A stretch of 64,000 nt of DNA from an uncultured Planctomycetales bacterium (GCA_964487475.1 CAZAPM010000005.1:1-64000); one strand, 5' to 3'. Positions 19,530-37,742 are shown, counted from the stretch's first letter. Numbers and translations are program-made. The notes: generated by a model from the sequence alone, not told the origin.

Positions 19530-19558
19530 TTGACACGAAAAAAGAACGATAGTATAAT
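19530..19558 (+). promoter_or_regulatory. Perfect-consensus sigma70 promoter heading the PKS cluster
   Basis: TTGACA-N17-TATAAT, followed by the palindrome GTTAAATTTAAC (19566-19577). Confidence 0.85.
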
Positions 19559-19606
19559 CAATTAGTTAAATTTAACCATATTTTTGCTGAGTGGGAATTT
19601 CTTGCC

Positions 19607-19876
19607 ATGCAATGGGATAAGCACACACAACATACTTTCGAGACCTTCATTTCTCGCATCCCGATCTTCCATCGCGCGATCACCAAGGAAACCGTGAGAA
19701 CGAAGGCTGAAGAGCTGGCCGAAGCGAGAAAAGCGGCCTTGGTCGAGGAAAAGGATGTGGTGGATGCGTTTTTTGCGGACGTTCCTTCGCCTTTTTACAG
19801 CATGATGATCCGACTGATGGAACAGACAGGCATCGATTACCGCAAATACGGCTACCCCAGAGCCTCCCGGAAATAA
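19607..19876 (+). CDS. Small PCP_red/DUF2621-like protein
   Basis: 'MQWD...RIPIFHR...KAEELA' resembles the protochlorophyllide-reductase C-terminal (PCP_red) pattern. Confidence 0.6.
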   Translation: MQWDKHTQHTFETFISRIPIFHRAITKETVRTKAEELAEARKAALVEEKDVVDAFFADVPSPFYSMMIRLMEQTGIDYRKYGYPRASRK

Positions 19877-19888
19877 CCGTCCCTACGT

Positions 19889-20896
19889 ATGAAAATTGCC
19901 GTCATTGGTGCAGGAGCGATAGGGAATCTTGTGGCCGGCTACCTTGCGCATAAGGGAGCGGACGTGGTGCTGGTGGGGCGGCCCGGCTCGGCCGAGGCGA
20001 TCCGTTCGCACGGGCTGCGCATTACCGGAGTGCGGGGGGAGTTGCAGGTGCGGGTAAGCATCGGGGAGCGCCTGTCCCTGGCGCCGGAGATCGCCGTGCT
20101 GGCGACGAAGACGCAGGATATCGAAGAGGCGCTGCGCTCCAATCAGGGGTATCTGCAGGAGAGCCTGATGCTGACTACGCAAAACGGGGTGCGCGCGGAT
20201 GCCATTGCCGCGCGGTTCGTGCCGCGGGAGCGTATCGTATCGAGCATAGTGATGTTCGGGGCGACGTACCTTGAGCCCGGGCATGTGGTGCATAATTTCG
20301 AGGGGAACTGGATCATGGGCAAAGGGTTTCCCTCGACCCCGGATACTCTGGTGCAGCAGGCGTCCCTTATGGCGTCCGCGGCGTTTTCGGTGGAGGTGAC
20401 TCCGCAGCTTTCCGGGATGAAGTACCTTAAAATATTCGTCAACGCCAACAATTGCATTCCCGCGATCCTCGGCACCAGTATGCAGGAAGCCTTCGCCGAT
20501 GCCGGGGTCAGCCGGGTGAGTGTCGCGATCTGGAGGGAAGGGCTGGAGGTGGTGCGCGCGGCAGGGATCACGCTTCACTCCATGCCTCATTTCCCGGTGG
20601 AGAATGTCACCAAGCTTTGCGCGATCCCGCTGGATGAGGCGGCCAGGGTGTTCTCCGGATTGATGGGAAAATTGAGCCGGGAGCCGCTCTACGGCTCCAT
20701 CCTGCAGAGCATCAAGCGCGGCCGCGCCTCGGAGATCGAGTATATCAACGGCGAGTTCGTGCGGCTGGCGCAGGCGCACGGGAAAGAGGCGCCGCTTAAC
20801 GCGAAGCTGGTGGCGATGGTGCATGAGGTGGAGAAGCGCGAGCAGTTCCTTTCCCGCGAGGCGTTTCTGGAGCAGGTGCAGGGGCTCTGCGCATAA
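19889..20896 (+). CDS. Ketopantoate reductase (ApbA/PanE) family NAD(P)H-dependent reductase
   Basis: 'IAVIGAGAIG', 'ATKT', 'QNGV', 'SILQSIKRGRASEIEYING'. Confidence 0.88.
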   Translation: MKIAVIGAGAIGNLVAGYLAHKGADVVLVGRPGSAEAIRSHGLRITGVRGELQVRVSIGERLSLAPEIAVLATKTQDIEEALRSNQGYLQESLMLTTQNGVRADAIAARFVPRERIVSSIVMFGATYLEPGHVVHNFEGNWIMGKGFPSTPDTLVQQASLMASAAFSVEVTPQLSGMKYLKIFVNANNCIPAILGTSMQEAFADAGVSRVSVAIWREGLEVVRAAGITLHSMPHFPVENVTKLCAIPLDEAARVFSGLMGKLSREPLYGSILQSIKRGRASEIEYINGEFVRLAQAHGKEAPLNAKLVAMVHEVEKREQFLSREAFLEQVQGLCA

Positions 20897-20908
20897 GAGA
20901 GGGCGGTC

Positions 20909-21523
20909 ATGGTAGATACTCCATTCCCCAAGTTGAAGCTTACCGTGAATGCGGTGCACGGTCATTGTTACCACGGGTATAAGATCGGCGACGAGATCAT
21001 CCTGGAGGATTTTACCCACGCGCCCAAGCATTTCTGCTTAGGATTGGCGCATGCGCTGTTTCCCGTGATCTACGGGCTTTCCTTCGGGGCGCAGTATCCT
21101 TTCCGGGATAACCAGCGGTCGCTGCTCGTCACCTGTCCCGACGGAGGGAAACTCGAGTTCAAGGCCGAGATCCTGGATAAGGAGGGGGCGGTCCAGCACA
21201 TCCCGAAGGACCCGCAGTGGAAGGGGCCCCGTCCTAAGAAGATGCGCCTTAAGGTGGTCCAGGCCAAAGGGCATTGCGCGTTCAAGTATAAAGTGGGGGA
21301 CACCTGGGAGACCACGGGTCTGCAGTGCATCCCGGGTTTTTGCGGCGCGGCGTTCCATACGGCGTTCCCGGCGCTTTTCGCGCTTAACTTCGGCGCGAAG
21401 TTTTTCTTTATGGAGGATCCTAACGGAGTCAATACGGTGACCTGCCCGGACGGAGGCAACATCATCTTCGAGGTTTCCCGGGTCGAAGAAACGGCGCAGG
21501 AGAAGAAGGATACGACGGGTTGA
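20909..21523 (+). CDS. Tandem TIGR04076-like Cys-motif protein
   Basis: Two repeats of GHC..K.GD...P..FC....H..FP...L.FGA...TCPDGG. Confidence 0.7.
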   Translation: MVDTPFPKLKLTVNAVHGHCYHGYKIGDEIILEDFTHAPKHFCLGLAHALFPVIYGLSFGAQYPFRDNQRSLLVTCPDGGKLEFKAEILDKEGAVQHIPKDPQWKGPRPKKMRLKVVQAKGHCAFKYKVGDTWETTGLQCIPGFCGAAFHTAFPALFALNFGAKFFFMEDPNGVNTVTCPDGGNIIFEVSRVEETAQEKKDTTG

Positions 21524-21524
21524 T

Positions 21525-22787
21525 ATGAAGAAAAGAAGAGTGGTGATCACGGGGATAGGGGTTATCTCTCCCAACGGTATCGGTAAGGATAAGGCCTGGG
21601 CAGGGATGTCCGGGGGAAAGTCGGGGATCAGGCGGGTGGACGGCTTCGACGTGAGCGTGTTCAATACCAAGATCGCGGCGGAAGTGAGGGATTTCGACCC
21701 CTTCGCGTTAGGTTTGACGCATCAGGAGGCCATGCGCATGGACCGCTACGTGCAGTTCGGGGTGGTAGCCGGGGACATGGCGATCAAGGACAGCCGCCTG
21801 GATTTCTCCAGGGTCGATCCGCAGCGGGTGGGGGTGTGCCTGGCCAACGCCATCTGCGGCACCAAATATATGGAGGAGGAGTTCGCGCTGGTCACCAACG
21901 ACGGCAAAGAGCCCATCGATCCGGCCAAGGTGCGTCCCGACCTGTATGACGCGGCCATGTTCAATACTCCTTCCATCGAGATCTCCGCGCGGTATAAGCT
22001 CAAGGGAGTGTGCAACACTATCTCCACCGGCTGCACTGCCGGGACCGATTCCTTAGGCTACGGGTTGGAAACGATCCAGGACGGTTTGCAGGATGTCATG
22101 GTCTGCGGCGCGGCCGAAGCGCCCCTGACGCCTATCACCTTCGGGGCGTTCGACGTGGTCAATGTCCTTTCCGTGCACAACGCCGAGCCCCAGAAAGCGT
22201 CCCGTCCTTTTGACAATAAACGCGACGGGTTCGTCCTTTCCGAAGGGTCGGGGATACTGATCCTGGAGGAGCTGGAGCATGCCTTGAAGCGCAATGCGCA
22301 TATTTATTGCGAGGTATTAGGCTTCGGCACCAGCTGCAACGCGTTCCATATGACCGACCTTCCGGCGGACGGCGGGGCCATGGCCAGCTGCATCAGGCTT
22401 GGTCTGAAGGATGCGGACATCAAGCCGACGGAGATCGACTATATTCAGGCGCACGGCTCTTCCACGAGAATGAACGATATCTTCGAGACTGCGGCCTACA
22501 AGATGGTGTTTGGGGACCATGCGTATAAGATCCCCGTAAGTTCGTTCAAGTCTATGATTGGCCATCCCCTGGCGGCAGCCAATGCCGTTGAAATGACCAT
22601 TGCCTGTATGATGTTCGAGAAGGACATTATCCCTCCGACGATCAATCAGGAGGAAAAGGACCCCTTGTGCGACCTGGATTACGTCCCGAACGTGGCTCGG
22701 CAGCAGAAGCTTAATACCATCATCAAGACCAGCAGCGGGTTTTCCGGGATTCATTCATCCTTAATCATGAGGCGTTTCAATGGATAA
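21525..22787 (+). CDS. Type II PKS ketosynthase alpha (KS-alpha)
   Basis: 'ISTGCTAGTDSLG' (aromatic KS-alpha STGC motif), 'AHGSSTRMND', 'KSMIGH', terminal 'SGFSGIHS'. Confidence 0.9.
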   Translation: MKKRRVVITGIGVISPNGIGKDKAWAGMSGGKSGIRRVDGFDVSVFNTKIAAEVRDFDPFALGLTHQEAMRMDRYVQFGVVAGDMAIKDSRLDFSRVDPQRVGVCLANAICGTKYMEEEFALVTNDGKEPIDPAKVRPDLYDAAMFNTPSIEISARYKLKGVCNTISTGCTAGTDSLGYGLETIQDGLQDVMVCGAAEAPLTPITFGAFDVVNVLSVHNAEPQKASRPFDNKRDGFVLSEGSGILILEELEHALKRNAHIYCEVLGFGTSCNAFHMTDLPADGGAMASCIRLGLKDADIKPTEIDYIQAHGSSTRMNDIFETAAYKMVFGDHAYKIPVSSFKSMIGHPLAAANAVEMTIACMMFEKDIIPPTINQEEKDPLCDLDYVPNVARQQKLNTIIKTSSGFSGIHSSLIMRRFNG

Positions 22788-24009
22788 GATCGCGATCACC
22801 GGTATCGGAGTGGTCTCACCCTCCGGCATAGGCAAAAGGCAGTTCTGGGCGAACATCAAGTCCGGGCGTTCTTTCATCAAGGAGATCACCCGTTTCGACG
22901 CTTCCCGCTACCCTTCGCGTATCGCCGGGCAGATCGACGACCTGGAGAAGTATTCGCACGTCTCCGAAAGGCTCCTGAAGAAGATCGACGCGTTCTCGCA
23001 CATGGCGCTGATCGCCTCCGAGATGGCGCTGCAGGATGCGGGGATCGACATCAAGCAGGAGGACCCGAACCTGGTGGGGATATTCCTCGGCAATGCCATC
23101 GGCGGGTGGCTGTATGCGGAGACCGAGCTGCGCGACCTTTATCTCGAAGGCCGCGAAGGGGTTTCCCCGTATATGGCGTCCGCCTGGTTCCCGGCCGCGC
23201 CCCAGGGGCAGGTGTCTATCTATTACGGGATCAAGGGATTTTCCAAGACGGTGGTTGCCGACCGGGCCAGCTCGCAGGAAGCGCTGGCGTATGCCAGGAA
23301 GACCCTGGCCAAGGGCAAGCTCAATATGATCCTTTCCGGAGGGATGGAGGCGCCGGTTTCTCCCTACGGGTTGCTTTGCTGCAACACTTACGGGTGCCTT
23401 TGCGAGGATAACCGCGTTCCCCAGGAAGCGTACCGTCCGTATGACCGCGCCCGCAAGGGAGTGGTGATCGGCGAGGGCGCCGGGATCGTGGTGCTGGAGA
23501 GTTCCGGCCGGGCCAAGGCCCGCGGCAAGCAGCCGTTGGCGTATATCACCGGACACGGTTCCACCTGCGACGGGTATGACCGGATCGGCTGCGATCCTTC
23601 GGGTGTGCAGCTGGCGCGCGCCATTACGCTGGCGCTCGCGGATGCCGGCCGCAAGCCCCACGAGATCGATTATGTGAGCCTCGACGGCATGGCGGTCGAG
23701 GGATGGGACAAGAGCGAGATCTCCGCCGTCACGCAGGTCTTCGGCGAGCACGCGAAACGGATGTTCGCCAGCTGTCCCAAGACCATGTTCGGGAACCTTC
23801 TGGGTGCTGCCTCGGCGCTGGACCTGATCACCGCGGTCCTGGCCATGGAGCATGAGATGGTCCCCCCGACGCTTAATCTGACCGACCCGGATATCGACGG
23901 GTTGAAGTACGTTACCGGCAAGGCCCAGGAGCATCCCGTAAAAAAGGCGCTGCTTATCTCCCGGGGCCGCGGCGGCATTAATTCGGTGTTAGTGGTAGAG
24001 AAACCTTAA
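22780..24009 (+). CDS. Type II PKS chain length factor (KS-beta/CLF)
   Basis: KS fold without the catalytic Cys; 'VSPYMASAWFPAAPQGQVSI' matches the CLF 'VSAYQSFAWF...GQISI' pattern; 'PKTMFGNL'; overlaps the KS-alpha stop. Confidence 0.88.
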   Translation: MDKIAITGIGVVSPSGIGKRQFWANIKSGRSFIKEITRFDASRYPSRIAGQIDDLEKYSHVSERLLKKIDAFSHMALIASEMALQDAGIDIKQEDPNLVGIFLGNAIGGWLYAETELRDLYLEGREGVSPYMASAWFPAAPQGQVSIYYGIKGFSKTVVADRASSQEALAYARKTLAKGKLNMILSGGMEAPVSPYGLLCCNTYGCLCEDNRVPQEAYRPYDRARKGVVIGEGAGIVVLESSGRAKARGKQPLAYITGHGSTCDGYDRIGCDPSGVQLARAITLALADAGRKPHEIDYVSLDGMAVEGWDKSEISAVTQVFGEHAKRMFASCPKTMFGNLLGAASALDLITAVLAMEHEMVPPTLNLTDPDIDGLKYVTGKAQEHPVKKALLISRGRGGINSVLVVEKP

Positions 24010-24062: not shown

Positions 24063-25523
24063 ATGAAGATACTTTTTGTGATGCCGAAGGTGGGAGCATG
24101 GGCGACCCACGGGAAACATGTGGCCCCTAACCAGCTGTACGCGCACTGGGCGGCGTATGTGCGTGAAAAAGGGTACGAGGACCTCGAGGTGCTTGACTGC
24201 AAGGCGCTGGAGATGGCCGACGACCAGATGGTGGAGACGGTCAAATCCAAGAAGCCCGATGTGGTGGTGATGGGGGAACAGCTGCACTCCTACGGCGGAT
24301 ACGCGGTGGTGGCGCATTTTAACGATGCCGCCCGCAAGATCAAATCCTCCTTCCCTTCGGTCAAGATCATCTTCGGCGGATTGTGGTACTCCGCGATGCC
24401 TACCGAAACGCTGGAGGCGAACCCGGCCGTGGATTACATCGTCATGGGTGAAGAGGAGTCGTTTTACGAGCTGATCGATGCCATCGCCAGGAAGCAGGAC
24501 CTGACCAAGGTGGCCGGGGTGACGGTGCGCGTGGACGGCAAGATTTCCATGGGGCCGTACAAGCCGCTGCTGCAGGACCTGGATTCCCTGCCGCTTCCGG
24601 CGTACGATCTTTTCCCGATGGAGAAGTACGTGGGGCATACCCACTGGAAGCCCTTCGTGGATATGGTCTCCTCCCGCGGATGCCCTTCGGCATGTACCTT
24701 CTGCTACGAGTGGGACCAGTATGACCCGCGTAACCCGTCCGATTTCCTGAAGTGGCGCGCCAAGAGCCCGGAGCGGGTCATCGAAGAGCTCAACGTGCTG
24801 CATAAAAAATACGGGGTCAAAGTGGTGGTGCTGCAGGACGATAATTTCAACGTCAATCCCGAGCGGGTGAAGAAGTTCTGCGAGCTTAAGAAAGCGGCGA
24901 ACAATCCCATCAAGTGGGTGTCCCTCGGCCGCGCCGTGGACTGGATCAACTGCGAGCCGATCCTGCCCCTGATGAAGGAGACCGGCCTGTTTACCGGCGT
25001 CTTCGGGATCGAAGTGACCACTCCCGAGGAGCTCAAGAAGATCGCCAAGGGTATTACCATCGACCAGATCAAAAAGACCGTGGAGATCCTGCGCAAGCAG
25101 AACATCGCGGTGGTGGCGGATATCATGATGGGCTTTGAGTACGACACGGAAGCCATCATCAAGCAGCGCTACGAGTTTACCGATATGGTCGATCCGGATA
25201 TCCTCTGGGTAGGCTACGTGACGCCGGCGCCGAATTCTCCCATGTGGAGGATAGGGATGCAGCGCAAGTGGATCGATCCCAAGAAGATCGATTTCACCCG
25301 GTGGGATTTCCTGCATCCGGTGATGCCGACGGACCATCTGACCGTGGAGGACCTGGGCCGTCTGGGTTCCTGGTGCATGCGCGAATTCTTCTCCAAGCCC
25401 GGACGTATCAACCGGATCATGGAGAGCGATTTCGATATCCTGGCCAAGCTTTGTTTCCAGGATGTCATGGCCGGGGTCGGCAAGTGGGAAGCCGGCGCCA
25501 CCAAAGGCGAAGTTCATATCTGA
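24063..25523 (+). CDS. Cobalamin-dependent radical SAM enzyme (class B methyltransferase/BchE-like)
   Basis: N-terminal B12-binding region ('PDVVVMG...IIFGG...DYIVMGEEE'), 'SRGCPSACTFC', 'DDNF'. Confidence 0.9.
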   Translation: MKILFVMPKVGAWATHGKHVAPNQLYAHWAAYVREKGYEDLEVLDCKALEMADDQMVETVKSKKPDVVVMGEQLHSYGGYAVVAHFNDAARKIKSSFPSVKIIFGGLWYSAMPTETLEANPAVDYIVMGEEESFYELIDAIARKQDLTKVAGVTVRVDGKISMGPYKPLLQDLDSLPLPAYDLFPMEKYVGHTHWKPFVDMVSSRGCPSACTFCYEWDQYDPRNPSDFLKWRAKSPERVIEELNVLHKKYGVKVVVLQDDNFNVNPERVKKFCELKKAANNPIKWVSLGRAVDWINCEPILPLMKETGLFTGVFGIEVTTPEELKKIAKGITIDQIKKTVEILRKQNIAVVADIMMGFEYDTEAIIKQRYEFTDMVDPDILWVGYVTPAPNSPMWRIGMQRKWIDPKKIDFTRWDFLHPVMPTDHLTVEDLGRLGSWCMREFFSKPGRINRIMESDFDILAKLCFQDVMAGVGKWEAGATKGEVHI

Positions 25524-25524: not shown

Positions 25525-25616
25525 ACGTAGGGACGGTTCTCTTTTACGGTTAGAACCGTCCCCTGTTACCGAGAATAAAAAGGGACGGTTCTGTATTTGA
25601 TCGGAGAACCGTCCCT
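25525..25616. repeat. Two tandem palindromic REP-like units GGGACGGTTCT..AGAACCGTCCC
   Basis: 11-bp IR 25530-25540/25552-25562 and 12-bp IR 25581-25592/25605-25616; the first unit begins with GTAG. Confidence 0.8.
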
Positions 25617-25629
25617 AAAAGGAGAGAAG

Positions 25630-25869
25630 ATGGATACGAAAACGAAGATAAAGGAAGTACTGGTGAAGTTGCTGAAGGTCAGGCCCGAAGAGCTCAAGGA
25701 CGGCGTCTCGCTGCAGGATTGCATCGGGGTCGATTCGACGGAAATGGTGGAATCGGTGATCGCCCTGGAAAAAGAGTTCGGCACCAAGCTTTCCCCAAAG
25801 GATATCACCAAGTTCTGTTCCATCGATGACATCGAAAAGGTGATCAGCAGTAAACTGTCCGTAAAATGA
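25630..25869 (+). CDS. Acyl carrier protein
   Basis: 79 aa; 'IGVDSTEMVE' phosphopantetheine Ser motif, 'LEKEFG'; AGGAG SD. Confidence 0.92.
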   Translation: MDTKTKIKEVLVKLLKVRPEELKDGVSLQDCIGVDSTEMVESVIALEKEFGTKLSPKDITKFCSIDDIEKVISSKLSVK

Positions 25870-26672
25870 GACTGGTAGACCTGTCGCTGCCCATTGACGA
25901 AAAAGCGTTCGAGGTCCACCGGGTAGAGATCGAACGTGTCAGCCACAAGGCGGGGGTGGAGAAGTTCAACCGCGTCATCATGGGCAAGACCTTCAAGGGC
26001 AAGGTGCAGCATCTCCTCGGCCAGCGGATCCTGAAACCTTCGGATCTCCCGGACGAGGAGTTTCTGTCTCTGGAGGTGGTGCATGCGCCGGTGCATGTCG
26101 GCACCCATCTGGATTACTCCTTCCATTACGGCTCCCGCTCCGAAGGCCGGGCTTCCCGGACCGCGGAGGAGATACCCCTGGAATGGTGTTACTGCGACGG
26201 GGTCAAGCTGGATTTCACCCATAAGAAGTCGGGTGAGGTGATCGCTGCCGCGGATATCGAGGCCGCCTTGAAGAAGATCGGATATGCGCTTAAGCCCAAG
26301 GATATCGTGCTGCTGCATACCGGGGCGGATAAATTTTACGGCTCTCCCAAGTATTTTGTCGAGTATCCGGGGGTGGACGTCTCGGCGATCGAGTATCTCC
26401 TCGACCGGGGGATCAAGATCTTCGGCACGGACACGATGGGGATCGACCGGCCCTATAAGTACATGCTGGCGGAGTTCCTGAAGACCCGCGACATATCGCG
26501 TTTTTATCCGTCCCATTTTTTCGGGAGGAAGAGGGAGTTCATCCACATCGAACGGCTGGCGCGGCTCGAACAGCTGCCGCCCACCGGGTATAAGATCATT
26601 TGTTTCCCTGTCCGGATCAAACAGACTGGCGCTGCCTGGGCGAGGGTAGTGGCAGAGTTCGCAGGAGGCTGA
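25866..26672 (+). CDS. Metal-dependent cyclase family protein (putative later-ring polyketide cyclase)
   Basis: 'HVGTHLD', 'GTDTMGID', 'HIERL'; same family as the ZhuJ/OxyN-type cyclases. Confidence 0.85.
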   Translation: MRLVDLSLPIDEKAFEVHRVEIERVSHKAGVEKFNRVIMGKTFKGKVQHLLGQRILKPSDLPDEEFLSLEVVHAPVHVGTHLDYSFHYGSRSEGRASRTAEEIPLEWCYCDGVKLDFTHKKSGEVIAAADIEAALKKIGYALKPKDIVLLHTGADKFYGSPKYFVEYPGVDVSAIEYLLDRGIKIFGTDTMGIDRPYKYMLAEFLKTRDISRFYPSHFFGRKREFIHIERLARLEQLPPTGYKIICFPVRIKQTGAAWARVVAEFAGG

Positions 26673-26673: not shown

Positions 26674-26988
26674 ATGGCGGAAAAGGCGGTTATTCAGGAT
26701 CTAGAGAAGATGATGGAATTCCCTCGCGAAGGGGTGTTCAGCAAGGTGCTGGTCAAGACCCCTACTTCCAACCATACCCTGATGTGCCTGGCCAAGGGCA
26801 GCGACATCTCGGAGCATACTTCGACCCGGGAAGCGGCGGTGACGGTGCTCAAGGGGAAGGGTACCTTCTGGCTGGGGAGGAAGAAGATCCCCATGAAGCA
26901 GGGAACGTTCATTTTCATGCCGAAGAACGCGCCGCACGCGCTTTCTGCGAGCGAGAACCTCGCGTTCATTTTAAGCCTGAGCGGAAGG
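26674..26988 (+). CDS. Cupin domain protein (3' end falls in the scaffold gap)
   Basis: 'ISEHTS..EA..VLKGKG...FIFMPKNAPHAL'. Confidence 0.8.
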
Positions 26989-27088
26989 NNNNNNNNNNNN
27001 NNNNNNNNNNNNNNNNNNNNNNNNNNNNNNNNNNNNNNNNNNNNNNNNNNNNNNNNNNNNNNNNNNNNNNNNNNNNNNNNNNNNNNNN
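26989..27088. other. Assembly gap (100 N)
   Basis: Run of N; the round length suggests a placeholder of unknown true size. Confidence 0.99.
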
Positions 27089-29447: not shown

Positions 29448-29845
29448 GCATGAACGCACAGGATAAGAAGAACATCCAGAAACGGTACCTGATCTGGTTC
29501 TATAAGTCGGCCAAAGAAGCCTTCGATAAGGTCGAGCGCAAGTTCACCCAGGCGGAGGTGGACCTGGAAGTGCTCGCCCGCCTGAAGCGTTTTGACCGAA
29601 GCGGCAGGCTGCGCAAGGAGCTCGCCGGATTCGAGGAGTATATCGACAAGAAGCTTTCCGCCGGCAAGGAGCTGAAATTCGCCGGCCGGGGTACCTTGAA
29701 GAACGAGTATATCTTCCTGGCGGCAAAACTCGATGCGGTGGAGAAGGTCATCGCGAAGCGTTTCGGCCCCGGGGAGCTTTCCCGGATCAAGCGGATGTAC
29801 GAGCAGGAGATGACCTCCCGTATTTTACGGAGCACCGAGCATTAG
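29444..29845 (+). CDS. Hypothetical helical protein
   Basis: ATGA-coupled ORF within the operon; no family recognised. Confidence 0.7.
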   Translation: MSMNAQDKKNIQKRYLIWFYKSAKEAFDKVERKFTQAEVDLEVLARLKRFDRSGRLRKELAGFEEYIDKKLSAGKELKFAGRGTLKNEYIFLAAKLDAVEKVIAKRFGPGELSRIKRMYEQEMTSRILRSTEH

Positions 29846-30769: not shown

Positions 30770-32547
30770 GGAATAATGCTTTTTTGCGCGTCTCGGTGCT
30801 GGTGGCGGTTATTGCAGGTGCGTTGGCAGGTGTCCCGCGTTCGGGAGGGTGCGCACCGGAACCTTATAAGGAATGGTCGGGTAGCGATTCCATGTTCGGG
30901 GGATTTGGGTACGATTCCAGGAAGAGCAGGATCGAAGAAGGATGGTTTTCCGGCAGGGTGGGGCATCACGAGAAAGAGATGGCTGCGTTTAAGGCAGGGC
31001 AGGAGCTGTCGGGTCCCGTAAAGAATGATTTCCACTGGGTGTTGCAGGTTCTGTTGAAAAAACCGTCTCGGATCGATTCTATCACCGTGTTCCCGGGCAC
31101 GCGCGGGCAAAATCATCAGACAGGGCAGCTGTTCTGCAAAGGTCAGGGGTGGAGCACGGCGAAGGGGACGGAAAATGAGTGCGGAGCGGTACTGGACCCG
31201 TTGCTGGTTTTTTTCAAAGGATCGCAGCTCAATGCCGGATATGATCAGACGCTTGGCGAGTACCCTGCGGATAAGCTGTTGACCTTCGATCTCTTCGGCC
31301 CGGCCCGCACCGATGCTTTTGAGGGAGGCGGAATAAGGGTTGAGCTGAGTGACGGGTCTCATCTGATCTCCGGCTTTGGCGATGAACTTACGAGCCCGCG
31401 CGTGAAACATTGCACCATTGCGACCGTTCCTCCCCCCTGGAATGCGGGGCAGTGGGGAGGGAAGGCATATGTACCGGTTCCGGATAAATTGCAATGGAAG
31501 GCTACCTTGCAGCTGGGGAGGCCGCTACAGATCCGCTCCATGTCGATTGAGCCATATACTATTAAGGTATCGTATAAAGGTGTAGAGTTGGATGCAAAAG
31601 ATATGCGTTCCCTGGGAGAGCTACCCGTTGGCGGACACACCTTTGATATATTCAGCGCGGGGCCGATCAAGGAGTCCCAGGGAGGGGATTTCGTGGTCGA
31701 ATTTGTTGACGGGGAAAAGTACCGTGTTGCTTTTGAGAAATCTGTCCCGGGTCTCCGATTGCATATTGATCTTTGTTGTGATAGGTCTCCTTGCGTGGAA
31801 CAGGGTACCGCGAAAGTTCCCGAGAAGTTCAGTATTTCCTTTTGTCGGCACTATAAGCCAGTTTCCGATAAACGGGATTATTTATATGTCGTGGGTGTTC
31901 TCACAGGAGAGTTTGATATTAAGAAGCGCCAGTTGGTGCTCACGCGCAGCGAGTCTTACGGGAAACTGCGTATTCGGGGTGCGGCAAAAAAGTTTACGAT
32001 CCCTCTTTCCGAAGATGGGAGCGCCAAAGGAGAGATACTCTATACCCATAAGGATGAGTTTTTCGGCGAGTCGATTTCGGGCACGATCTCTCTTGATCTG
32101 CAGGTACGGGAAGACGGCCGGCTGGTGATCCGGGATGCAGCGGTTTCCGATTCGTTCGACCGCAGGTTCTTTTTCCCGAGGAAGGGAACCGCGGTTAAAA
32201 CGCATGGCGAGTTGTTCTCTCTTCAGGGGGGACATGGAGACGGATTGAGTTCTGTGACATACGATAATACGGGATTTTTCTTTGACGGGATCGATGACGG
32301 AAAGGTGATCATCTCAGCTGCCCCGTATGAGTCGGAATACGGGGGTGGCGGATGCAGCGAGGAGGATGATACGCCAGTCGCCGTTCTCGACTTGAATGAA
32401 GCGGGTCTGGCGACCTATGTGCACCAGGGGCATTCCTTCGAATTCAAGCTTATCGCAGAGCCGCATACCCGCGAGAAATTTTTCGTTCAATGGAAATGTT
32501 TAGATACAGAAGGCTTGAGAGTCGAGCTCGTCGACCCGGATAAGTAA
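30766..32547 (+). CDS. Secreted hypothetical protein with internal duplication
   Basis: Signal-like N-terminus; beta-rich; codons more AT-rich than the flanking genes. Confidence 0.7.
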   Translation: MRNNAFLRVSVLVAVIAGALAGVPRSGGCAPEPYKEWSGSDSMFGGFGYDSRKSRIEEGWFSGRVGHHEKEMAAFKAGQELSGPVKNDFHWVLQVLLKKPSRIDSITVFPGTRGQNHQTGQLFCKGQGWSTAKGTENECGAVLDPLLVFFKGSQLNAGYDQTLGEYPADKLLTFDLFGPARTDAFEGGGIRVELSDGSHLISGFGDELTSPRVKHCTIATVPPPWNAGQWGGKAYVPVPDKLQWKATLQLGRPLQIRSMSIEPYTIKVSYKGVELDAKDMRSLGELPVGGHTFDIFSAGPIKESQGGDFVVEFVDGEKYRVAFEKSVPGLRLHIDLCCDRSPCVEQGTAKVPEKFSISFCRHYKPVSDKRDYLYVVGVLTGEFDIKKRQLVLTRSESYGKLRIRGAAKKFTIPLSEDGSAKGEILYTHKDEFFGESISGTISLDLQVREDGRLVIRDAAVSDSFDRRFFFPRKGTAVKTHGELFSLQGGHGDGLSSVTYDNTGFFFDGIDDGKVIISAAPYESEYGGGGCSEEDDTPVAVLDLNEAGLATYVHQGHSFEFKLIAEPHTREKFFVQWKCLDTEGLRVELVDPDK

Positions 32548-32557
32548 GGGAGGGATC

Positions 32558-32866
32558 ATGGCGCAATGTCCGTCGTGCAATCAGAAAGTCCCGTTCGGGA
32601 TCCTGCGGTTTGATTTTGCCAAGAACGCGGGCAAGTCCCGGTATCACCGCGAGTACGCGTGCCCGTTCTGCAAGCAGCTCTTCAGTATCACCGTCGCATC
32701 GAGGATCGCGGCGGAAGTGCTGGTGATCGCGGGCAGCATCGGCATATTCGTGGCCGCAGATAAGTTCTTCGGGAACGAAACTTTGGGGGTCCTGGCGGCG
32801 GTCGTCTACGCAATTGTGCTGGCGATAATCTGGTGGATCGGGTTCGCCCAGACCTATAGGCCGTAA
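32558..32866 (+). CDS. Small Zn-ribbon (CxxC..CxxC) membrane protein
   Basis: 'CPSC', 'CPFC' followed by two TM helices; GGGAGGG SD. Confidence 0.7.
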   Translation: MAQCPSCNQKVPFGILRFDFAKNAGKSRYHREYACPFCKQLFSITVASRIAAEVLVIAGSIGIFVAADKFFGNETLGVLAAVVYAIVLAIIWWIGFAQTYRP

Positions 32867-32886
32867 GGGTATTATTGCGTGATGCG

Positions 32887-33540
32887 ATGAAAAAAGCATT
32901 TCTTTCGTTGTTCCTGTGCGCCGTATGGTGCTCCTGCGGGTGGGCGGGGGTACGGGAGACCGCAGATGCGCTGATATACGTTCCGGATTCCCTGGACCAT
33001 AGCAGGAAACATCCCGTAGTGGTCGCGCTTTCGCCTTCCGCCGATGCGCACGGCATGATCGAGGCCTGGAAAGGGATCTCCGAACGGTATCAGTGGCCGG
33101 TGCTGGCAGCCAGGAACTATTCCAACGGCGGGGATATGATGCAGATGCTTAAGGTGGTCGCCCGAAGCGTCCGGGCTGCGGCGGAGTATCTGCCTATCGA
33201 CGGAACGAGGGTCATCGCGACCGGTATTTCGGGCGGAGGGATGGGCGCGCACGCCTTCGCGTTCCAGTATCCGGAGATGACCGGGGCCGTGGTGGTCAAC
33301 ACCGGGATGATGCACGAGTATTATTTTTCCCCGGCGCAGGCGCCCCGTTATCCCCGGGGCAAACTCGCGGTGTTTTTGGCCAGTCCGGAGGATTTCCGGT
33401 ACGGGGAGATGAAGCGGGACCGGTCGTTCTTGACGGGACGCCAGTGGACGACGAAATGGATCGAATTTGCGGGAGGGCATACCATGGCGCCCGATACCGC
33501 GTACGAAGAAGCAGCCCAGTGGATCGCTGAGCGCATATAA
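32887..33540 (+). CDS. Secreted alpha/beta hydrolase (esterase-like)
   Basis: Signal peptide, nucleophile elbow 'GISGGG', C-terminal 'GGH'. Confidence 0.75.
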   Translation: MKKAFLSLFLCAVWCSCGWAGVRETADALIYVPDSLDHSRKHPVVVALSPSADAHGMIEAWKGISERYQWPVLAARNYSNGGDMMQMLKVVARSVRAAAEYLPIDGTRVIATGISGGGMGAHAFAFQYPEMTGAVVVNTGMMHEYYFSPAQAPRYPRGKLAVFLASPEDFRYGEMKRDRSFLTGRQWTTKWIEFAGGHTMAPDTAYEEAAQWIAERI

Positions 33541-33553: not shown

Positions 33554-34300
33554 ATGCAGATGCAGAAGGAAGTTCATTTGACGGGCAAGGATCTGGTAGG
33601 AATGGTGCAGCTTCGTCCGCAGGACGTGGGACAGTATGCGATCGTCCCCGGGCCGAAGGACAGGCTGGAAGTGCTGTTGAAGAAGATACAGGATCCGGTA
33701 CGCAATTTCTCCTTCATGGAATATACGATGTATACCGGCACGTACCAGGGGATCAAGGTCACCGGGATCAACGGCGGCCGTTTTTCGACGGATACTTCGA
33801 TCACCTCCGAGGTCATCTGCAACGCCGGGATCAAGAACGTCATCCGTATCGGTTCCTGCGGCGCCATGGACGAGAAGATCAAGGTGGGAGACCTGGTCCT
33901 GGTGGATACCGTGATCCGCGGCGACGGGGTAACGCCCTATTACGTGAAACCCGACTTTAAGACCGTGGCGGACAAGCAGATCACCGACACCCTTTTCGAG
34001 GTGGCCCAGGGGATGGGGCTTACCGTGCACCGGGGCACGGCCTGGACTACAGATGCGCTGCTTAAGGAGACCCGCGAGATAGTCGAAGCTAAGCGCAAGG
34101 AGGGCGCCATTGCGGTGGATATGGTCTCCTCGACGCTGTTGACCATCGCGCAGCTGTACAACGTCAAAGCCGGATCGATCCTGGCGGTCAGCGACAACCT
34201 GATCACCGGTGAGATGGGGTTCATGAACCCGCTTTATTACATGGCGGAAACCAACCTCATTACAATCGCCTTGGAAACCGTCAAGCGCCTGAACGCATGA
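33554..34300 (+). CDS. Nucleoside phosphorylase (PNP/UDP family 1)
   Basis: TAAGGAG SD; 'IRIGSCGA', 'WTTDA', 'AVDMVSS', 'AVSDNL'. Confidence 0.88.
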   Translation: MQMQKEVHLTGKDLVGMVQLRPQDVGQYAIVPGPKDRLEVLLKKIQDPVRNFSFMEYTMYTGTYQGIKVTGINGGRFSTDTSITSEVICNAGIKNVIRIGSCGAMDEKIKVGDLVLVDTVIRGDGVTPYYVKPDFKTVADKQITDTLFEVAQGMGLTVHRGTAWTTDALLKETREIVEAKRKEGAIAVDMVSSTLLTIAQLYNVKAGSILAVSDNLITGEMGFMNPLYYMAETNLITIALETVKRLNA

Positions 34301-35235
34301 AGCCGTTTTCCCCGCTCTTCTGGCCGATACGATACCAGCAGGGAGTGATCTCCATTCTCGACGAGACGCTTCTGCCGCATCAGGTGGTCTATATCGAAGC
34401 TCCCGATCACGCGGCAGCGTGCCGGGCGATCCGGGAGATGAAGACGCGCGCCGTGGGCCAGGTGCTGCTGGTGATGTATATTTTCATCCAGCTGATCGAC
34501 CGGCATCAGGGCAATGTCCCCTCCGAGCTGCTGGAAAAAGTGGCGCAGGAGATCAACGCCACCCGGCCGACGCTTTCCTTTAAGTATCTTACCGATATGG
34601 TCCTGGGGTGGGCCAGGCAGGGGGCTCCTCTGTCCCAGGCCATCAACGGGTTCCTGGAAGGGCTTAAACACGCCCGCCTGGCGCAGGCGAAAGAAGCGGC
34701 CGCGCTGCTTAAGGACGGGGATGCCGTCCTTACGCATTGTAACATCAGCGGGCTGATGCCGGTGATCGCGGGATTTGCCGCGGAGCAGGGGAAGGCGGTC
34801 AGGTTTTTTGCGACCGAGACCCGGCCGTACCTGCAGGGGTCGCGGCTCACCGCCTGGGAATTGCACGAAGCGGGTTTTGACGTGACGGTGATCGCGGACG
34901 GGATGGCAGCACAGGTCATGGCCGAAGGAAAGATCTCCAAGGTCATCGTCGGGGCGGATCATCTGGCGCAAAACGGTGATATCGCCAACAAGATCGGCAC
35001 GCTGCAGATCGCCCTGGCAGCCAGGCATTTCGGGATCCCTTTTTACGTGATCTGTCCGCCTGCGTCCAGGGCGCAAAGCGGCAAGGATATCGCCATCGAG
35101 GTCCGTCCGGAGGATGAATTGCTTGTGATCAACGGGGTGCGTACCACCTCCGCGGGGGTCAAGGGTTATTATCCGGCGTTCGACGTGACGCCGGCCGAGT
35201 TAATCACCGGGCATATCAAGCTGGGGGTGCGTTGA
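34297..35235 (+). CDS. mtnA: Methylthioribose-/5-deoxyribose-1-phosphate isomerase-like protein (MtnA family, divergent)
   Basis: 'LTHCN', 'ETRPYLQGSRLTAWEL', 'NGDIANKIGT', 'PAFDVTPAELITG'. Confidence 0.82.
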   Translation: MKPFSPLFWPIRYQQGVISILDETLLPHQVVYIEAPDHAAACRAIREMKTRAVGQVLLVMYIFIQLIDRHQGNVPSELLEKVAQEINATRPTLSFKYLTDMVLGWARQGAPLSQAINGFLEGLKHARLAQAKEAAALLKDGDAVLTHCNISGLMPVIAGFAAEQGKAVRFFATETRPYLQGSRLTAWELHEAGFDVTVIADGMAAQVMAEGKISKVIVGADHLAQNGDIANKIGTLQIALAARHFGIPFYVICPPASRAQSGKDIAIEVRPEDELLVINGVRTTSAGVKGYYPAFDVTPAELITGHIKLGVR

Positions 35236-36251
35236 TGGCTGATCAACTGCAGGCGTGCAAGGAAGCGATCAAGATCACGGGGAAAAGGCTCTACTCCTCG
35301 GGCCTGGCCGTGGCCCGTTCGGGGAATATCAGCTGCCGCCTGGACGACGCGCAGGTCCTCATCACCGCCACCGGCACGTACCTGGGGGAGCTTTCCGACC
35401 AGGATATCGTGCGGGTCGATCTCGCCGCCGGCCTTTGCCTGGATGCGAAAAAGCCGAGCTCCGAACTTCCCCTGCATTCCCTCGTCTACAAGAATTTCCC
35501 GGCGAAGGTCGTGGTGCACTGCCATCCGCCCCTGGCCAACGGTTATTTTTCGGTCAATGATTCCCTGGAGGCCTGCACGTTCGAGACCAGATTCTATTTA
35601 GGCAGGGTTCCGGTGGTGGCGCAGGAGACGCCGACGGTTACTCGACCGGAGGCAGTGATCGATGCGCTCAAGGCCAACAGCCTGGTAGTGCTCAAGCACC
35701 ACGGCGCGGTCGCCATGGGAGAGACCTTTGACGAGGCTATGGCGCTGGTCGAAGCGCTCGAGGAAGCGGTCAAATCCGCCTGCGTGGCGCGCCTTTTCTC
35801 CGTAGGGGGTCAGCTTTCCGCTCCGGCAAATGCTGCCGGGTCTTTCTCCGGGGCCCGGACGGGTTCCGGATCCGGAGGGATGAAGATGTTCTCTCCGGAG
35901 CATATCCAGGCGATCGTGGACCTGGTCAACCAGGATGAGCTGATCGCCCGGAAAGGCAGCGAGCTCGACCTGACCGTGCAGCTGGCGATTTGTCTCGACG
36001 GAAGCGACGATAAGTACAAGTTCAATTTTGAAAAGGGCAAGATCGTGCGCCTGGACCGGGACGCCGATGCGCCTTTTGTCATCTCTGCTCCGGCCGCGGT
36101 GTGGGAGCAGGTATTCTTAGGAAAGCTGGATTCTTTTGTCGCGGTCACTCAGGGAAAGATGAGCCTCAAGGGCCAGTTGGGGCAGCTTTCCAAGTGGTAC
36201 GTGCCCTTCACCAGGCTTTTCGAGCTTTTCAAGCAGGTCCCCATACGGTAA
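35232..36251 (+). CDS. Class II aldolase/adducin domain fused to an SCP2 sterol-carrier domain
   Basis: 'SGNISCR', 'PSSELPLH', 'VVHCHP', 'LKHHGA'; C-terminal 'FVISAPAAVW...GKLDSFVAVTQGKMSLKG' is SCP2-like. Confidence 0.85.
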   Translation: MMADQLQACKEAIKITGKRLYSSGLAVARSGNISCRLDDAQVLITATGTYLGELSDQDIVRVDLAAGLCLDAKKPSSELPLHSLVYKNFPAKVVVHCHPPLANGYFSVNDSLEACTFETRFYLGRVPVVAQETPTVTRPEAVIDALKANSLVVLKHHGAVAMGETFDEAMALVEALEEAVKSACVARLFSVGGQLSAPANAAGSFSGARTGSGSGGMKMFSPEHIQAIVDLVNQDELIARKGSELDLTVQLAICLDGSDDKYKFNFEKGKIVRLDRDADAPFVISAPAAVWEQVFLGKLDSFVAVTQGKMSLKGQLGQLSKWYVPFTRLFELFKQVPIR

Positions 36252-36254
36252 CAC

Positions 36255-37742
36255 ATGAAAACATCCTACCCCGCGTATATCGACGGAGCGTTCGTGGAGG
36301 GAGTCTCTTTGCGCCGCGCGCTCGATCCGGCAACGGGTGAGCCGGTCGCGGATGCCGCCTGGCTTTCTCGTGAACAGCTGCTTCAGGCGCTGGCAGGCGC
36401 ACGCCGCGCCGCGGATGAAGGCCCCTGGCGCGCAATCTCATTGAGAGAGCGCAAGGAGTTCCTGCTGCGCATCAGCCGCGGGATACTGGAGCGGGCAGGG
36501 GAGCTCGCGATGCTCGAGACCCTCAATACCGGCAAGCCGCTGAAGGAATCCACCTTCATGGATATCCCTTCCGCTGCCAAAACCTTCGAGCATTTCGCCC
36601 TTCATCTCGAGGAGTACCTGCAGGAGGAATCTCTGCGGCCGGTGGCGCACGCCCAAGGCACGCTAATCCGCCAGCCGCGGGGAGTGGCCCTTCTGATCGT
36701 CCCCTGGAATTATCCTTTGATCATCGCTTCCTGGAAGATGGCATCCGCGCTGGCAGCCGGCAATACGGTGATCCTCAAGCCCTCCAGCCTTACCCCCCTG
36801 ACCGCGCTTGCGTTAGCGGAGATCGTTCACTCCTGCGGCCTGCCTCCGGGTGTCGTGCAGGTCGTCAATGCTTCCGGAGAGGATGTTCAGGAGTGCCTGT
36901 GTGCGGACGCGCGGGTGGACATGATCTCTTTTACCGGCGGGAACGAAGTCGGACGTAAGATCATCGCCTCCAGCGCGCCGCAGGTCAAAAAACTGGTGAT
37001 GGAACTGGGAGGGAAATCCGCGTCCTTAGTCCTGGCGGATGCCGATCTCGAGCTGGCGGTCAACGGCTCCCTTTGTTCGATCTTCCTTAATCAGGGGCAG
37101 ATGTGCACGGCGATGTCCCGTATCTTCGTGCAGGAGAAGGTGTATGAGCCTTTCCTGAAAGATTTTGCCGCGAAAGCTTCCCGGATCGTGCTGGGGAAAG
37201 GGATCGACGCGCAGACCCAGATGGGCCCGCTGATCTCGCGGGAGCAGAGGGAGAGGGTCCAGGCGTTCGTGGCTCAGGCCCAAAAAGAAGGGGCGAAGGT
37301 GGTTTGCGGAGGATGCGTTCCGCGATCGCCGGAACTGGCAAAGGGGTTTTTCTTCGAGCCTACGGTCCTCTCGGGGGTGACGTCCCAAATGCAGGCGTTC
37401 CGGGAGGAGGTGTTCGGCCCGGTGGTGTGCGTGGGGAAGTTCTCGACGATAGAAGAAGGTATTGCCCTGGCGAACGCCTCGGAGTTCGGATTGGCCAGTT
37501 GCGTGTGGAGCGCGAACACGCATGCCGCGGAGGAGATCGGCCGGCGCATCGATGCCGGCCTGACGTGGATCAACACCTACGGGATGTTCTATGACGCGCT
37601 TTCCTACGGAGGGTTCAAGCAAAGCGGCTTCGGCTATGAGCTTGGCCGCGCAGGGTTCCTCGAGTATACCCGCCTTAAAACGATCGTCACCGACCGTACC
37701 GAGGGCGCCAAGCCTTTGGTCAACTACTGGTACGGATTCTAG
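36255..37742 (+). CDS. NAD(P)-dependent aldehyde dehydrogenase
   Basis: 'VPWNYP', 'FTGG', 'MELGGKS', 'NQGQMC', 'EEVFGPV', 'GGFKQSG'. Confidence 0.95.
   Translation: MKTSYPAYIDGAFVEGVSLRRALDPATGEPVADAAWLSREQLLQALAGARRAADEGPWRAISLRERKEFLLRISRGILERAGELAMLETLNTGKPLKESTFMDIPSAAKTFEHFALHLEEYLQEESLRPVAHAQGTLIRQPRGVALLIVPWNYPLIIASWKMASALAAGNTVILKPSSLTPLTALALAEIVHSCGLPPGVVQVVNASGEDVQECLCADARVDMISFTGGNEVGRKIIASSAPQVKKLVMELGGKSASLVLADADLELAVNGSLCSIFLNQGQMCTAMSRIFVQEKVYEPFLKDFAAKASRIVLGKGIDAQTQMGPLISREQRERVQAFVAQAQKEGAKVVCGGCVPRSPELAKGFFFEPTVLSGVTSQMQAFREEVFGPVVCVGKFSTIEEGIALANASEFGLASCVWSANTHAAEEIGRRIDAGLTWINTYGMFYDALSYGGFKQSGFGYELGRAGFLEYTRLKTIVTDRTEGAKPLVNYWYGF

Follow-up and report, generated by a model that had tools for sequence, protein, structure and literature searches.

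Aromatic type II polyketide synthases (PKSs) usually count as accessory antibiotic factories of actinomycetes. The described systems closest to the locus treated here belong to an ancestral, non-actinomycete group, namely the den (dendrubins), clr (clostrubin), wex (wexrubicin), ant (AQ-256), and pcy clusters, and oxygenase-poor type II PKSs of strict anaerobes have already been published (PMC7693217, in the accessible portion of that paper). We describe a gene cluster of this kind in a window of 64,000 nucleotides, the whole stretch of DNA that was analyzed (GCA_964487475.1, CAZAPM010000005.1:1-64000, deposited as an uncultured Planctomycetales bacterium). In contrast to the usual picture, the PKS is kept stably here in an uncultured phylum with genomes of 1–3 Mb, the Omnitrophota. 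It is accompanied by a cobalamin-domain radical S-adenosylmethionine (SAM) enzyme and by a module of nucleoside-processing genes, i.e., a phosphorylase, an isomerase, an aldolase fused to an SCP2 domain (aldolase::SCP2), and an aldehyde dehydrogenase (ALDH).

According to the accessible part of PMC7693217, the five known clusters resemble ours in combining a minimal set of ketosynthase (KS), chain length factor (CLF), and acyl carrier protein (ACP) with a TcmN-type aromatase and an OxyN-type cyclase, in having few or no oxygenases, and in their strictly anaerobic producers. The differences are found around this core. The same source gives den, ant, and pcy a TcmN-TcmN arrangement, whereas the window cluster has one mono-domain TcmN protein. 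Set against all five, its fixed members comprise a B12 radical SAM enzyme, a tandem TIGR04076 protein, a PanE-type reductase, a LigW-like decarboxylase, and the nucleoside module with a ligase. Moreover, the five are known from single strains, while the window cluster is kept in about 30% of a small-genome phylum.

Two further systems bear on the accompanying genes. In the dihydroxyacetone phosphate (DHAP) shunt, the MtnP variant uses MtnP, MtnA, and Ald2 to process 5'-deoxyadenosine and methylthioadenosine (MTA), as the accessible part of PMC10986504 describes. Our module would follow the same order of reactions, with a phosphorylase, a sugar-1-phosphate isomerase, and a class II aldolase leading to DHAP and an aldehyde. 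Unlike the shunt, it has a DeoD/Udp-like phosphorylase instead of an MTA phosphorylase (MTAP), an aldolase with SCP2, an ALDH and a FadD-type ligase that would extend the route to an activated acid, and, in many relatives, a second small eIF-2B-like protein; it also goes together with a single radical SAM family and with either a PKS or a lipid exporter. The other system is the pairing of a radical SAM adenosylase with an adenine-removing enzyme of the PNP family, met twice so far, in HpnH/HpnG (hopanoids) and with MqnE in the futalosine route (PMC13459092, as far as its accessible part goes). The logic that we propose below resembles that of HpnH/HpnG (adenosylhopane to ribosylhopane) and MqnE/MqnB (aminofutalosine), in which a radical adds to a C=C bond and adenine is then removed. 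The cluster enzymes are, however, no members of these families by sequence (HpnG 47 bits), the radical enzyme carries a cobalamin domain, and the trimming of ribose to a C2 unit by isomerase and aldolase is hypothetical.

As for the phylum itself, in a 2023 catalogue Candidatus Omnitrophica is one of the 14 phyla that have KS-CLF pairs (PMC10132072, accessible part), while the words polyketide and ketosynthase are absent from the main text of two phylum-wide genome papers in so far as that text was accessible (PMC10066038, bioRxiv 10.64898/2026.06.07.730766). A literature search that combined DHAP shunt, deoxyadenosine, radical SAM, and aldolase turned up no account of their linkage. The original prediction had presented the locus as its best candidate for an undescribed system. 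This is true only in part, given that oxygenase-poor type II PKSs of strict anaerobes and KS-CLF pairs in Omnitrophica are both in print (PMC7693217, PMC10132072, in their accessible parts). We can confirm that the cluster is real and conserved, that it belongs with the oxygenase-poor type II PKSs of anaerobes, and that its fixed partnership is unusual.

Genes were named from open reading frame (ORF) calls and from Pfam and NCBIfam profile searches at E <= 0.001. Judged by its sequence, the core of the cluster is well supported as a genuine type II PKS of the non-actinomycete branch. The KS carries Cys-His-His (CHH) at the columns of FabF Cys164, His304, and His341, as do 7/7 of the relatives' KSs. 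In the CLF, the cysteine position holds Arg or Lys in 8/8 Omnitrophota proteins (R/K-D-N; R-D-N in the window copy) and Gln in 2/2 Streptomyces CLFs; Arg is also found in 2/2 non-actinomycete references (from Azospirillum and Bacillus plasmid clusters), which thus share the Arg-type CLF with the window cluster. The active-site Gln of CLFs has a role in decarboxylative priming, and on the sequences compared it is a mark of the actinomycete branch, not of the type II PKS family. Against solved structures, the KS reaches 383 bits with 6smo_B, 381 with the actinorhodin KS 1tqy_A, at most 351 with FabF, and 237 with the 'Ketosynthase' 6kxd_A. We take 6smo_B to be the Photorhabdus anthraquinone synthase, although the structure entry itself says just 'PKS_KS domain-containing protein'.

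For the CLF, FabF (269 bits) and the actinorhodin CLF (263 bits) reach similar scores, and the question was therefore taken to trees. Their input combined 95 single-domain representatives, obtained by searching 1.84 billion cluster representatives, with FabF-like genes of this genome and with annotated references drawn from plasmid records and E. coli K-12. This set gave 123 rows for FastTree and a 64-row subset for IQ-TREE, and both trees agree. In the 64-row IQ-TREE, the Omnitrophota KSs join 4/4 reference KS-alpha proteins in a 35-row clade (SH-aLRT 99) that contains no FabF or FabB, the ketosynthases of fatty acid synthase (FAS). The Omnitrophota CLFs join 4/4 reference CLFs in a 13-row clade (SH-aLRT 99), again with no FAS ketosynthase inside. 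The KS and CLF, on which the original prediction had built its aromatic pathway, are thus both placed inside type II PKS clades and not with FabF. The window KS groups with non-actinomycete type II KSs (those of the Azospirillum and Bacillus plasmid clusters and a Clostridium KS cluster), and its neighbors in the tree come from Laceyella, Thermoactinomyces, Clostridium, and metagenomes, with names such as 'minimal PKS ketosynthase (KS/KS alpha)'. It counts against this part of our reading that the references stem from annotated, not characterized, clusters and that polyene-type ketosynthases lie outside the tree. A second ketosynthase set occurs on another contig of the same genome (L140:4196-8351, + strand), where a 364-amino-acid (aa) KS-like protein, a FabA-like dehydratase, a 404-aa FabF-like KS, and a PagL-like lipid A deacylase are encoded; a very long ORF (8393-16459) comes next.

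The proteins acting after chain assembly point the same way. The aromatase/cyclase (ARO/CYC) matches the solved polyketide cyclases 3tl1/3tvr/2kf2 and TcmN (2rez) at E 1e-24 to 1e-23, in keeping with its first description as TcmN/WhiE-VI-like. The PF04199 cyclase (OxyN is presumably another member of this family) is 45% identical (E 4e-64) to a 'cyclase family protein' of a Bacillus bombysepticus plasmid type II PKS cluster. The Amidohydro_2 enzyme matches 5-carboxyvanillate decarboxylase (4icm_A, 4.3e-23) and gamma-resorcylate decarboxylase (2dvt_A, 2e-18). We considered the short-chain dehydrogenase/reductase (SDR) as a C-9 ketoreductase and leave that role unassigned, because two Streptomyces PKS ketoreductases (29% identity) are no nearer to it than E. 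coli FabG (32%). Flavin monooxygenase, P450, and ABM families have no Pfam match in the 22 ORFs at E <= 0.001, so the absence of a recognizable oxygenase, claimed from the outset, stands; we say none recognizable rather than none because five ORFs have no Pfam family. Pfam likewise shows no dehydratase or enoyl reductase in the run.

Taken together, we predict with high confidence that the cluster produces a small aromatic polyketide without using oxygen, from loading by FabD through to tailoring, and that it exports this product. Outside the cluster, the genome encodes FabD and one AcpS-type transferase, and this fatty-acid FabD would load malonyl units onto the PKS. KS and CLF would then assemble a poly-beta-ketone on the ACP, the aromatase and the cyclase would fold it into rings, and the reductases and the decarboxylase would tailor the polyketide before a pump of the major facilitator superfamily (MFS) exports the product.

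To see how widely the set is kept, we sampled 401 Omnitrophota genomes evenly from the phylum; related genomes are not independent, so the co-occurrence counts are descriptive and are not tests. The CLF was found in 123/401 genomes at E <= 1e-90 (122 after dropping G307, with 39% identity), and in 48/59 genomes of the window's own family. The radical SAM enzyme occurs in 129/401 and the aldolase in 143/401, of which 132 cover the SCP2 part and 11 short matches were dropped. CLF, radical SAM enzyme, and aldolase::SCP2 are found together in 116/401 genomes and none of the three in 264/401, while the latter two coincide in 125 genomes. Where CLF and aldolase::SCP2 are both present (118 genomes), they share a contig in 91, and in 90 of these 91 they lie within 15 kb of each other (median 9 kb).

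A synteny search across metagenome-assembled genomes (MAGs), proposed in the original prediction, found the gene order again in 20/20 relatives' loci fetched around the CLF. All 20 contain the ACP, the cyclase, and the ARO/CYC, 19 the KS and 19 the PanE/ApbA-like reductase, 18 each the SDR, the Amidohydro_2 enzyme, and the DUF2621-like gene (which there mostly adjoins a radical SAM paralogue directly), 15 the MFS transporter, and 14 the TIGR04076 gene. The cupin is found in just three (L036, L038, L040), where it is intact and lies between cyclase and ARO/CYC. When the nearest non-Omnitrophota CLF was used to scan beyond the phylum, 58 loci were obtained; those at 40–45% identity are ordinary FabG-FabF pairs. 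The full set (including radical SAM, TIGR04076, phosphorylase, and isomerase) was found under the labels Thermodesulfobacteriota (3), Syntrophaceae, Syntrophobacter, Dehalococcoidales/Dehalococcoidia (3), a Deltaproteobacteria MAG, and Planctomycetia, although such labels of MAGs can be mistaken. A named enrichment organism, Ca. Velamenicoccus archaeovorus LiM (L104), for which a metatranscriptome and a metaproteome exist (PMC12583861), has it as well. The cluster is a stable trait of the phylum, probably kept by vertical descent. The original prediction was right to see a real PKS cluster, yet this is no lone biosynthetic island but a conserved, phylum-wide trait (122/401 genomes with the CLF). 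A variant was noted in L048 and L090, from a complete Omnitrophota genome, where CLF (at about 4004 and 10001), ACP, cyclases, and module are present, no KS, PanE, or TIGR04076 gene was found upstream of the CLF, and an opposite-strand ligase gene lies there.

The nucleoside module has a less familiar composition. Its phosphorylase gives 119 bits with the NCBIfam model Udp and 101 with DeoD (both below the cut-offs), 47 with HpnG, 27 with futalosine hydrolase, and 25 with the MTAP model TIGR01694 (cut-off 275). A true MTAP is encoded on a separate contig of the same genome, with 302 bits against the latter cut-off of 275; this protein (L138:3984-5318, - strand) has an N-terminal extension of about 160 residues that belongs to no family. 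The isomerase passes TIGR00524 (203.9 bits, cut-off 185.85) and stays below TIGR00512 (231.5 against 279) and NF004326 (251 against 271). In the aldolase::SCP2 protein, fuculose-1-phosphate aldolases match residues 8-190 and the SCP2-like structure 1wfr_A residues 211-326. The fusion is present in 132/132 full-length aldolase matches, whereas PKS-less members of the window's family have a short, stand-alone aldolase in 4/4 loci examined. We rejected the idea that these short proteins serve a classical shunt: at 4/4 loci, these queries detected neither a phosphorylase nor an isomerase within about 10 kb.

Beyond the ALDH, an acyl-CoA ligase belongs to the same unit. Its homologues adjoin a phosphorylase, ALDH, or DUF2621 gene in L036, L037, L053, L069, L074, L075, L083, L113, and L118, and the ligase is adjacent to the module in 5/5 PKS-less module loci, while it is absent from the viewed stretches of L038, L049, and L054. 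Because this ligase (40003-41529 in the window) belongs to it, the 'deoxyadenosine module' is wider than first stated. Five PKS-less genomes have a packed operon of ligase, radical SAM, phosphorylase, isomerase, small eIF-2B-like, and aldolase::SCP2 genes, 35–45% identical. In two such operons annotated with Pfam (L066:3076-15586, - strand; L067:5020-15963, + strand), an MMPL pump, a LolA-like/DUF1329 protein, and a DUF1302 outer-membrane barrel are interleaved, and L066 has an ALDH too. The earlier view of a deoxyadenosine-processing module is therefore borne out in its members (phosphorylase, isomerase, aldolase-SCP2, and ALDH were all found) and has to be widened in its extent and probably also in its role, beyond plain by-product disposal.

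Some further neighbors of the module deserve mention. A small eIF-2B-family protein (about 162 aa) is encoded between isomerase and aldolase::SCP2 at L074:5041-5529 (- strand), with homologues in L095-L111, and is missing from the window copy. The PKS-less module of L066 and L067 has Band_7 and NfeD genes on its flanks, and in the window two Band_7/SPFH genes (37739-39964, - strand) separate the ALDH from the ligase. AccA is encoded nearby in the window (7673-8620) as well as in L067, L072, L073, and L074. The recurrence of Band_7/NfeD and AccA near the module suggests an old shared neighborhood.

The radical SAM enzyme has B12-binding and radical SAM domains above the Pfam cut-offs, a CxxxCxxC motif in its translation, and predicted cobalamin binding. 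It resembles the BchE/HpnJ/AprD4 group in domain order (B12-binding, then radical SAM), in its best family scores (217 bits with the BchE model, cut-off 481; 146 bits with HpnJ), and in its best solved relative (AprD4, 6fd2_B, 3.5e-18). It differs in staying far under every equivalog cut-off, including that of the 'lipid biosynthesis B12 rSAM' model TIGR04072 (73.7 bits, cut-off 360). On these scores it is not BchE itself, and by analogy it may act like MqnE or HpnH without being a member of those families. Its gene lies inside the PKS core in the window, L083, and L087, and after the SDR gene in some families; other families have two radical SAM paralogues, one between ALDH and DUF2621 and one after the decarboxylase gene. 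A further paralogue, in L141, is located beside an Alginate_exp-type porin and a lipid A acyltransferase gene.

As the best explanation of the locus as a whole we propose, tentatively and with less than even confidence, a type II PKS combined with radical adenosylation and with trimming of the adduct to an activated acid that is two carbons longer. That the module trims an adenosylated greasy substrate is read from gene content, and we hold it equally tentatively. The radical SAM enzyme would add the 5'-deoxyadenosyl radical to an sp2 carbon of this substrate, as MqnE and HpnH do, after which the phosphorylase would take off adenine (as HpnG and MqnB) and the isomerase would yield ribulose-1-phosphate. 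The aldolase, with the greasy tail held in its SCP2 domain, would release DHAP and R-CH2-CHO, which the ALDH would convert to R-CH2-COOH; the ligase would activate this acid, perhaps as a starter for the PKS. In its most specific form, C5'-C4' of the SAM ribose would be donated as a carboxymethyl C2 unit to a hydrophobic acceptor, and the CoA-activated product would prime the Arg-type PKS, which we consider rather unlikely. More than disposal is suggested for the module by the separate true MTAP in the genome, the SCP2 fusion, the recurrence of a FadD/MenE-like ligase, the operon that the PKS-less set shares with an MMPL/LolA-like/DUF1302 exporter, and the lack of the whole set in two thirds of the sampled phylum. 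The adduct route would explain the SCP2 domain and the type of ligase, the presence of an additional phosphorylase, the association with an exporter, and the close co-inheritance.

A good deal also weighs against adenosylation and trimming. The phosphorylase scores best with Udp and DeoD, not with HpnG or futalosine hydrolase, the isomerase comes close to the cut-off for true methylthioribose-1-phosphate (MTR-1-P) isomerases (251 vs. 271 bits), and the aldolase domain (115 bits with NF006413, cut-off 203) has small-sugar aldolases as its nearest solved relatives; such likenesses would fit ordinary small 5-deoxy sugars. Among the 17 NCBIfam matches of the radical SAM enzyme at E <= 0.001, none is to the HpnH, MqnE, or MqnC models, and we know of no cobalamin-domain radical SAM enzyme that adenosylates its substrate. 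In the window its gene lies within the PKS core, 8 kb from the module, and paralogues 59–62% identical stand with a TetR gene and no module (L141:7565-11962 and L142:8769-10829, both - strand). The genes ahcY and metF beside a Streptomyces type II PKS set a precedent for cofactor recycling in biosynthetic clusters. A close rival, possible though short of probable, keeps the same PKS and lets the B12 radical SAM enzyme methylate or oxidize the polyketide in a BchE-like manner, as a substitute for an oxygenase. The module would then recycle the freed 5'-deoxyadenosine to adenine, DHAP, and acetaldehyde by an MtnP-type DHAP shunt, and ALDH and ligase would turn the acetaldehyde into acetate and acetyl-CoA for the malonyl pool. 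Besides the SAM-recycling genes of Streptomyces and the small-sugar likeness of the aldolase, the isomerase score above the TIGR00524 cut-off and the AccA genes near the cluster in the window and in L067, L072, L073, and L074 favor this rival, and class B radical SAM enzymes known so far release 5'-deoxyadenosine. In addition, the trio is the same as in the published shunt (an MtnP variant with MtnA and Ald2; PMC10986504, accessible part). Recycling is hard to square, however, with a true MTAP already present elsewhere in the genome and with the 264/401 genomes that have none of the set, yet in which radical SAM enzymes are common (many candidates per genome); it also leaves the SCP2 fusion, a ligase of FadD rather than Acs type, and the PKS-less lipid exporter unexplained.

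Other readings fare worse. It is improbable that the module serves to break down or scavenge 5'-substituted nucleosides from outside (e.g., from host or prey) and is co-inherited with the PKS through shared regulation only. The DHAP shunt does support growth of E. coli on 5'-deoxynucleosides (PMC10986504), Omnitrophota have been called host-dependent (PMC10066038, like the former in its accessible part), and the module also occurs without a PKS. Against this stand the radical SAM enzyme in 125/132 genomes with aldolase::SCP2, the persistence of the module beside the PKS through several rearrangements and across phyla, and a run in which Pfam finds no nucleoside importer. Still less probable is a KS/CLF that makes a reduced, lipid-like or polyene chain, as in ladderane- or fatty-acid-type clusters, even though antiSMASH 'ladderane' or other clusters have been reported in Omnitrophota MAGs (PMC9902471, accessible part), an SDR and a PanE-type reductase are present, and the radical SAM enzyme matches TIGR04072, albeit far under its cut-off. 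For such a chain the run lacks a dehydratase and an enoyl reductase, a TcmN-type aromatase and a PF04199 cyclase are encoded at 20/20 loci, KS and CLF lie within aromatic type II clades, and the FabA-linked KS pair of this genome sits elsewhere (C1). Least probable of all, and largely refuted, is that a respiratory quinone owes its aromatic head group to the cluster, with prenylation by a MenA-like enzyme to follow. The genome does encode a MenA-like protein (C17:26002-26763, 110 bits, cut-off 102) and a UbiE/MenG split over contig ends (C24:14250-14606 and C21:18515-18880), MenB, MenD, and MqnA/D were not found in this 94.6%-complete genome, and the CLF is present in 35/42 genomes with a strong MenA. 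MenA exceeds its cut-off in only 49/122 CLF-positive genomes, though, and a true MenB beside the strong MenA in 5/5 CLF-positive genomes indicates the classical pathway.

Whether by adenosylation and trimming or by recycling, the partnership has consequences for how the cluster is viewed. Its stable retention points to a physiological product, i.e., a pigment, an envelope or redox compound, or a weapon of host-dependent cells. Either this would be the first biosynthetic cluster with its own 5'-deoxyadenosine recycling line, or new radical chemistry would build carbon skeletons from SAM ribose without oxygen; about 15 genes, all of known sequence, would suffice to test both options directly. 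If the adduct route is true, it would be an oxygen-free route to C-C bonds and the third natural use of radical adenosylation after MqnE (menaquinone) and HpnH (hopanoids), and the PKS product would belong to the core molecules of the cell in Omnitrophota and other anaerobes, instead of being an occasional antibiotic.

One of the fixed members is the tandem TIGR04076 protein. Its gene is separated from the KS gene by 1 nucleotide (nt), and an alignment of 19 sequences shows six invariant cysteines (C20, C43, C76, C123, C145, C179), three per repeat. The protein has no Pfam family and no sequence match in the PDB, and an Atlas search returned nothing beyond TIGR04076's own kind. For its AF2 model (pLDDT 89.6), Foldseek gave a best E of 0.24 and nothing at or below 0.001, and the best VIA Z scores (6.3 and 6.2, to XdhC-like N-domains over 72–79 residues) are too weak to name the fold. 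The PanE-like reductase and TIGR04076 are fused in L050:920-2566 (+ strand, 548 aa) and L113:6857-8488 (+ strand, 543 aa), which argues that the two proteins work together.

The features of the locus are listed in the table. The run consists of 22 tightly packed ORFs, all on the + strand (19607-37742); with longest-ORF calls, the intergenic gaps are at most 73 nt and seven junctions overlap. All genes named in the original prediction are present on this strand, but the PanE-like gene lies upstream of the KS gene and not after the SDR gene, and the three ORFs at 30766-33540 and others had been left out. The start assigned earlier (19530) coincides exactly with the sole 12/12 sigma-70 consensus, although promoter-like sites as such are not in excess (8 observed vs. 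7.5 expected in 19400-38400). The end at 37742 has to be given up, as the recurrent unit runs further and includes the ligase.

Table. Features of the type II PKS locus and its module (positions counted from the first nucleotide of the window)
Feature	Position	Strand	Basis and remarks
Sigma-70-type promoter consensus TTGACA-17-TATAAT, 12/12	19530..19558	+	Consensus match, predicted; 49 nt upstream of first gene
DUF2621-like protein, 89 aa	19607..19876	+	PF11084 30.6 bits (cut-off 27.7)
PanE/ApbA-family NAD(P)H reductase	19889..20896	+	PF02558 + PF08546; TIGR00745 176 bits (cut-off 141)
Tandem TIGR04076 protein	20909..21523	+	TIGR04076 90.6 bits; two repeats
KS-alpha	21525..22787	+	PF00109 + PF02801; Cys-His-His
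CLF (KS-beta)	22780..24009	+	8-nt overlap with KS gene; Arg-Asp-Asn at catalytic positions
Cobalamin-domain radical SAM enzyme, BchE/HpnJ-like	24063..25523	+	PF04055 77.9 bits, PF02310 46.5 bits
ACP	25597..25869	+	PF00550; likely start ATG at 25630; serine motif GVDST in translation
PF04199 metal-dependent cyclase	25866..26672	+	PF04199 109.6 bits
Cupin, 3' end lost to N run	26674..26988	+	PF07883
100-N run, assembly gap or masked stretch	26989..27088	.	Exactly 100 N
Mono-domain TcmN/WhiE-VI-type aromatase/cyclase (SRPBCC)	27089..27526	+	PF10604 + PF03364; start abuts N run
MFS transporter, 12-TM, drug:H+ antiporter-like	27527..28657	+	PF07690 176.7 bits
SDR reductase	28671..29447	+	PF00106
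133-aa ORF, no family	29444..29845	+	39–47% identical matches in L036-L038 and L040
Amidohydro_2 enzyme, LigW/gamma-resorcylate-decarboxylase-like	29849..30769	+	PF04909
593-aa predicted lipoprotein, 102-aa Cys-rich membrane ORF, 221-aa esterase-like ORF	30766..33540	+	Weak NCBIfam matches
DeoD/Udp-type nucleoside phosphorylase	33554..34300	+	PF01048 120.7 bits; longest ORF from 33467
MtnA-like (eIF-2B family) sugar-1-phosphate isomerase	34297..35235	+	PF01008 193.6 bits
Class II aldolase fused to SCP2 lipid-binding domain	35232..36251	+	PF00596 124 bits + PF02036
NAD(P)+ aldehyde dehydrogenase	36255..37742	+	PF00171 523 bits; under all NCBIfam equivalog cut-offs
FadD/MenE-type acyl-CoA (AMP-forming) ligase, 508 aa	40003..41529	+	PF00501 + PF13193; NF004837 423 bits (cut-off 476)

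Some of the smaller features call for comment. The DUF2621-like ORF has a weak likeness to PCP_red (E 0.0074), under the cut-off. Because of the N run, the cupin gene lacks its end and the ARO/CYC gene may lack its start. The 133-aa ORF is retained in closer relatives, whereas the three ORFs at 30766-33540 have no Pfam family and are matched in 0/20 relatives' loci, being particular to this genome's copy. We rejected a genomic island by composition: the GC content (0.545–0.611 in the cluster vs. 0.505–0.616 outside) shows no contrast.

The host has been identified through its KS. The 119 best KS homologues besides the window's own, from a 90%-clustered collection, are 80–85% identical, and the named ones all belong to Candidatus Omnitrophica/Omnitrophota, in agreement with the earlier guess at this phylum; none of them could serve as an outgroup. 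The genome measures 1.87 Mb in 36 contigs (94.6% complete). No haem-copper oxidase was found in it, and DNA of the window occurs in wastewater, biogas-fermenter, and sludge metagenomes from three studies; both are consistent with the anaerobic way of life that had been inferred. No RNA runs containing window positions 21525-26980 are listed. An OEP/TolC-type protein (10383-11666), an AcrB pump, and a secretin (51992-53626) are encoded in the window; these envelope genes would fit a two-membrane cell, and the TolC and secretin on which the diderm assignment had leaned are both there. The secretin gene (+ strand) forms part of a Tad/Flp-type pilus locus (RcpC, ATPase, and two TadB/C-like genes), and its product carries a C-terminal TonB_C domain at residues 465-541.

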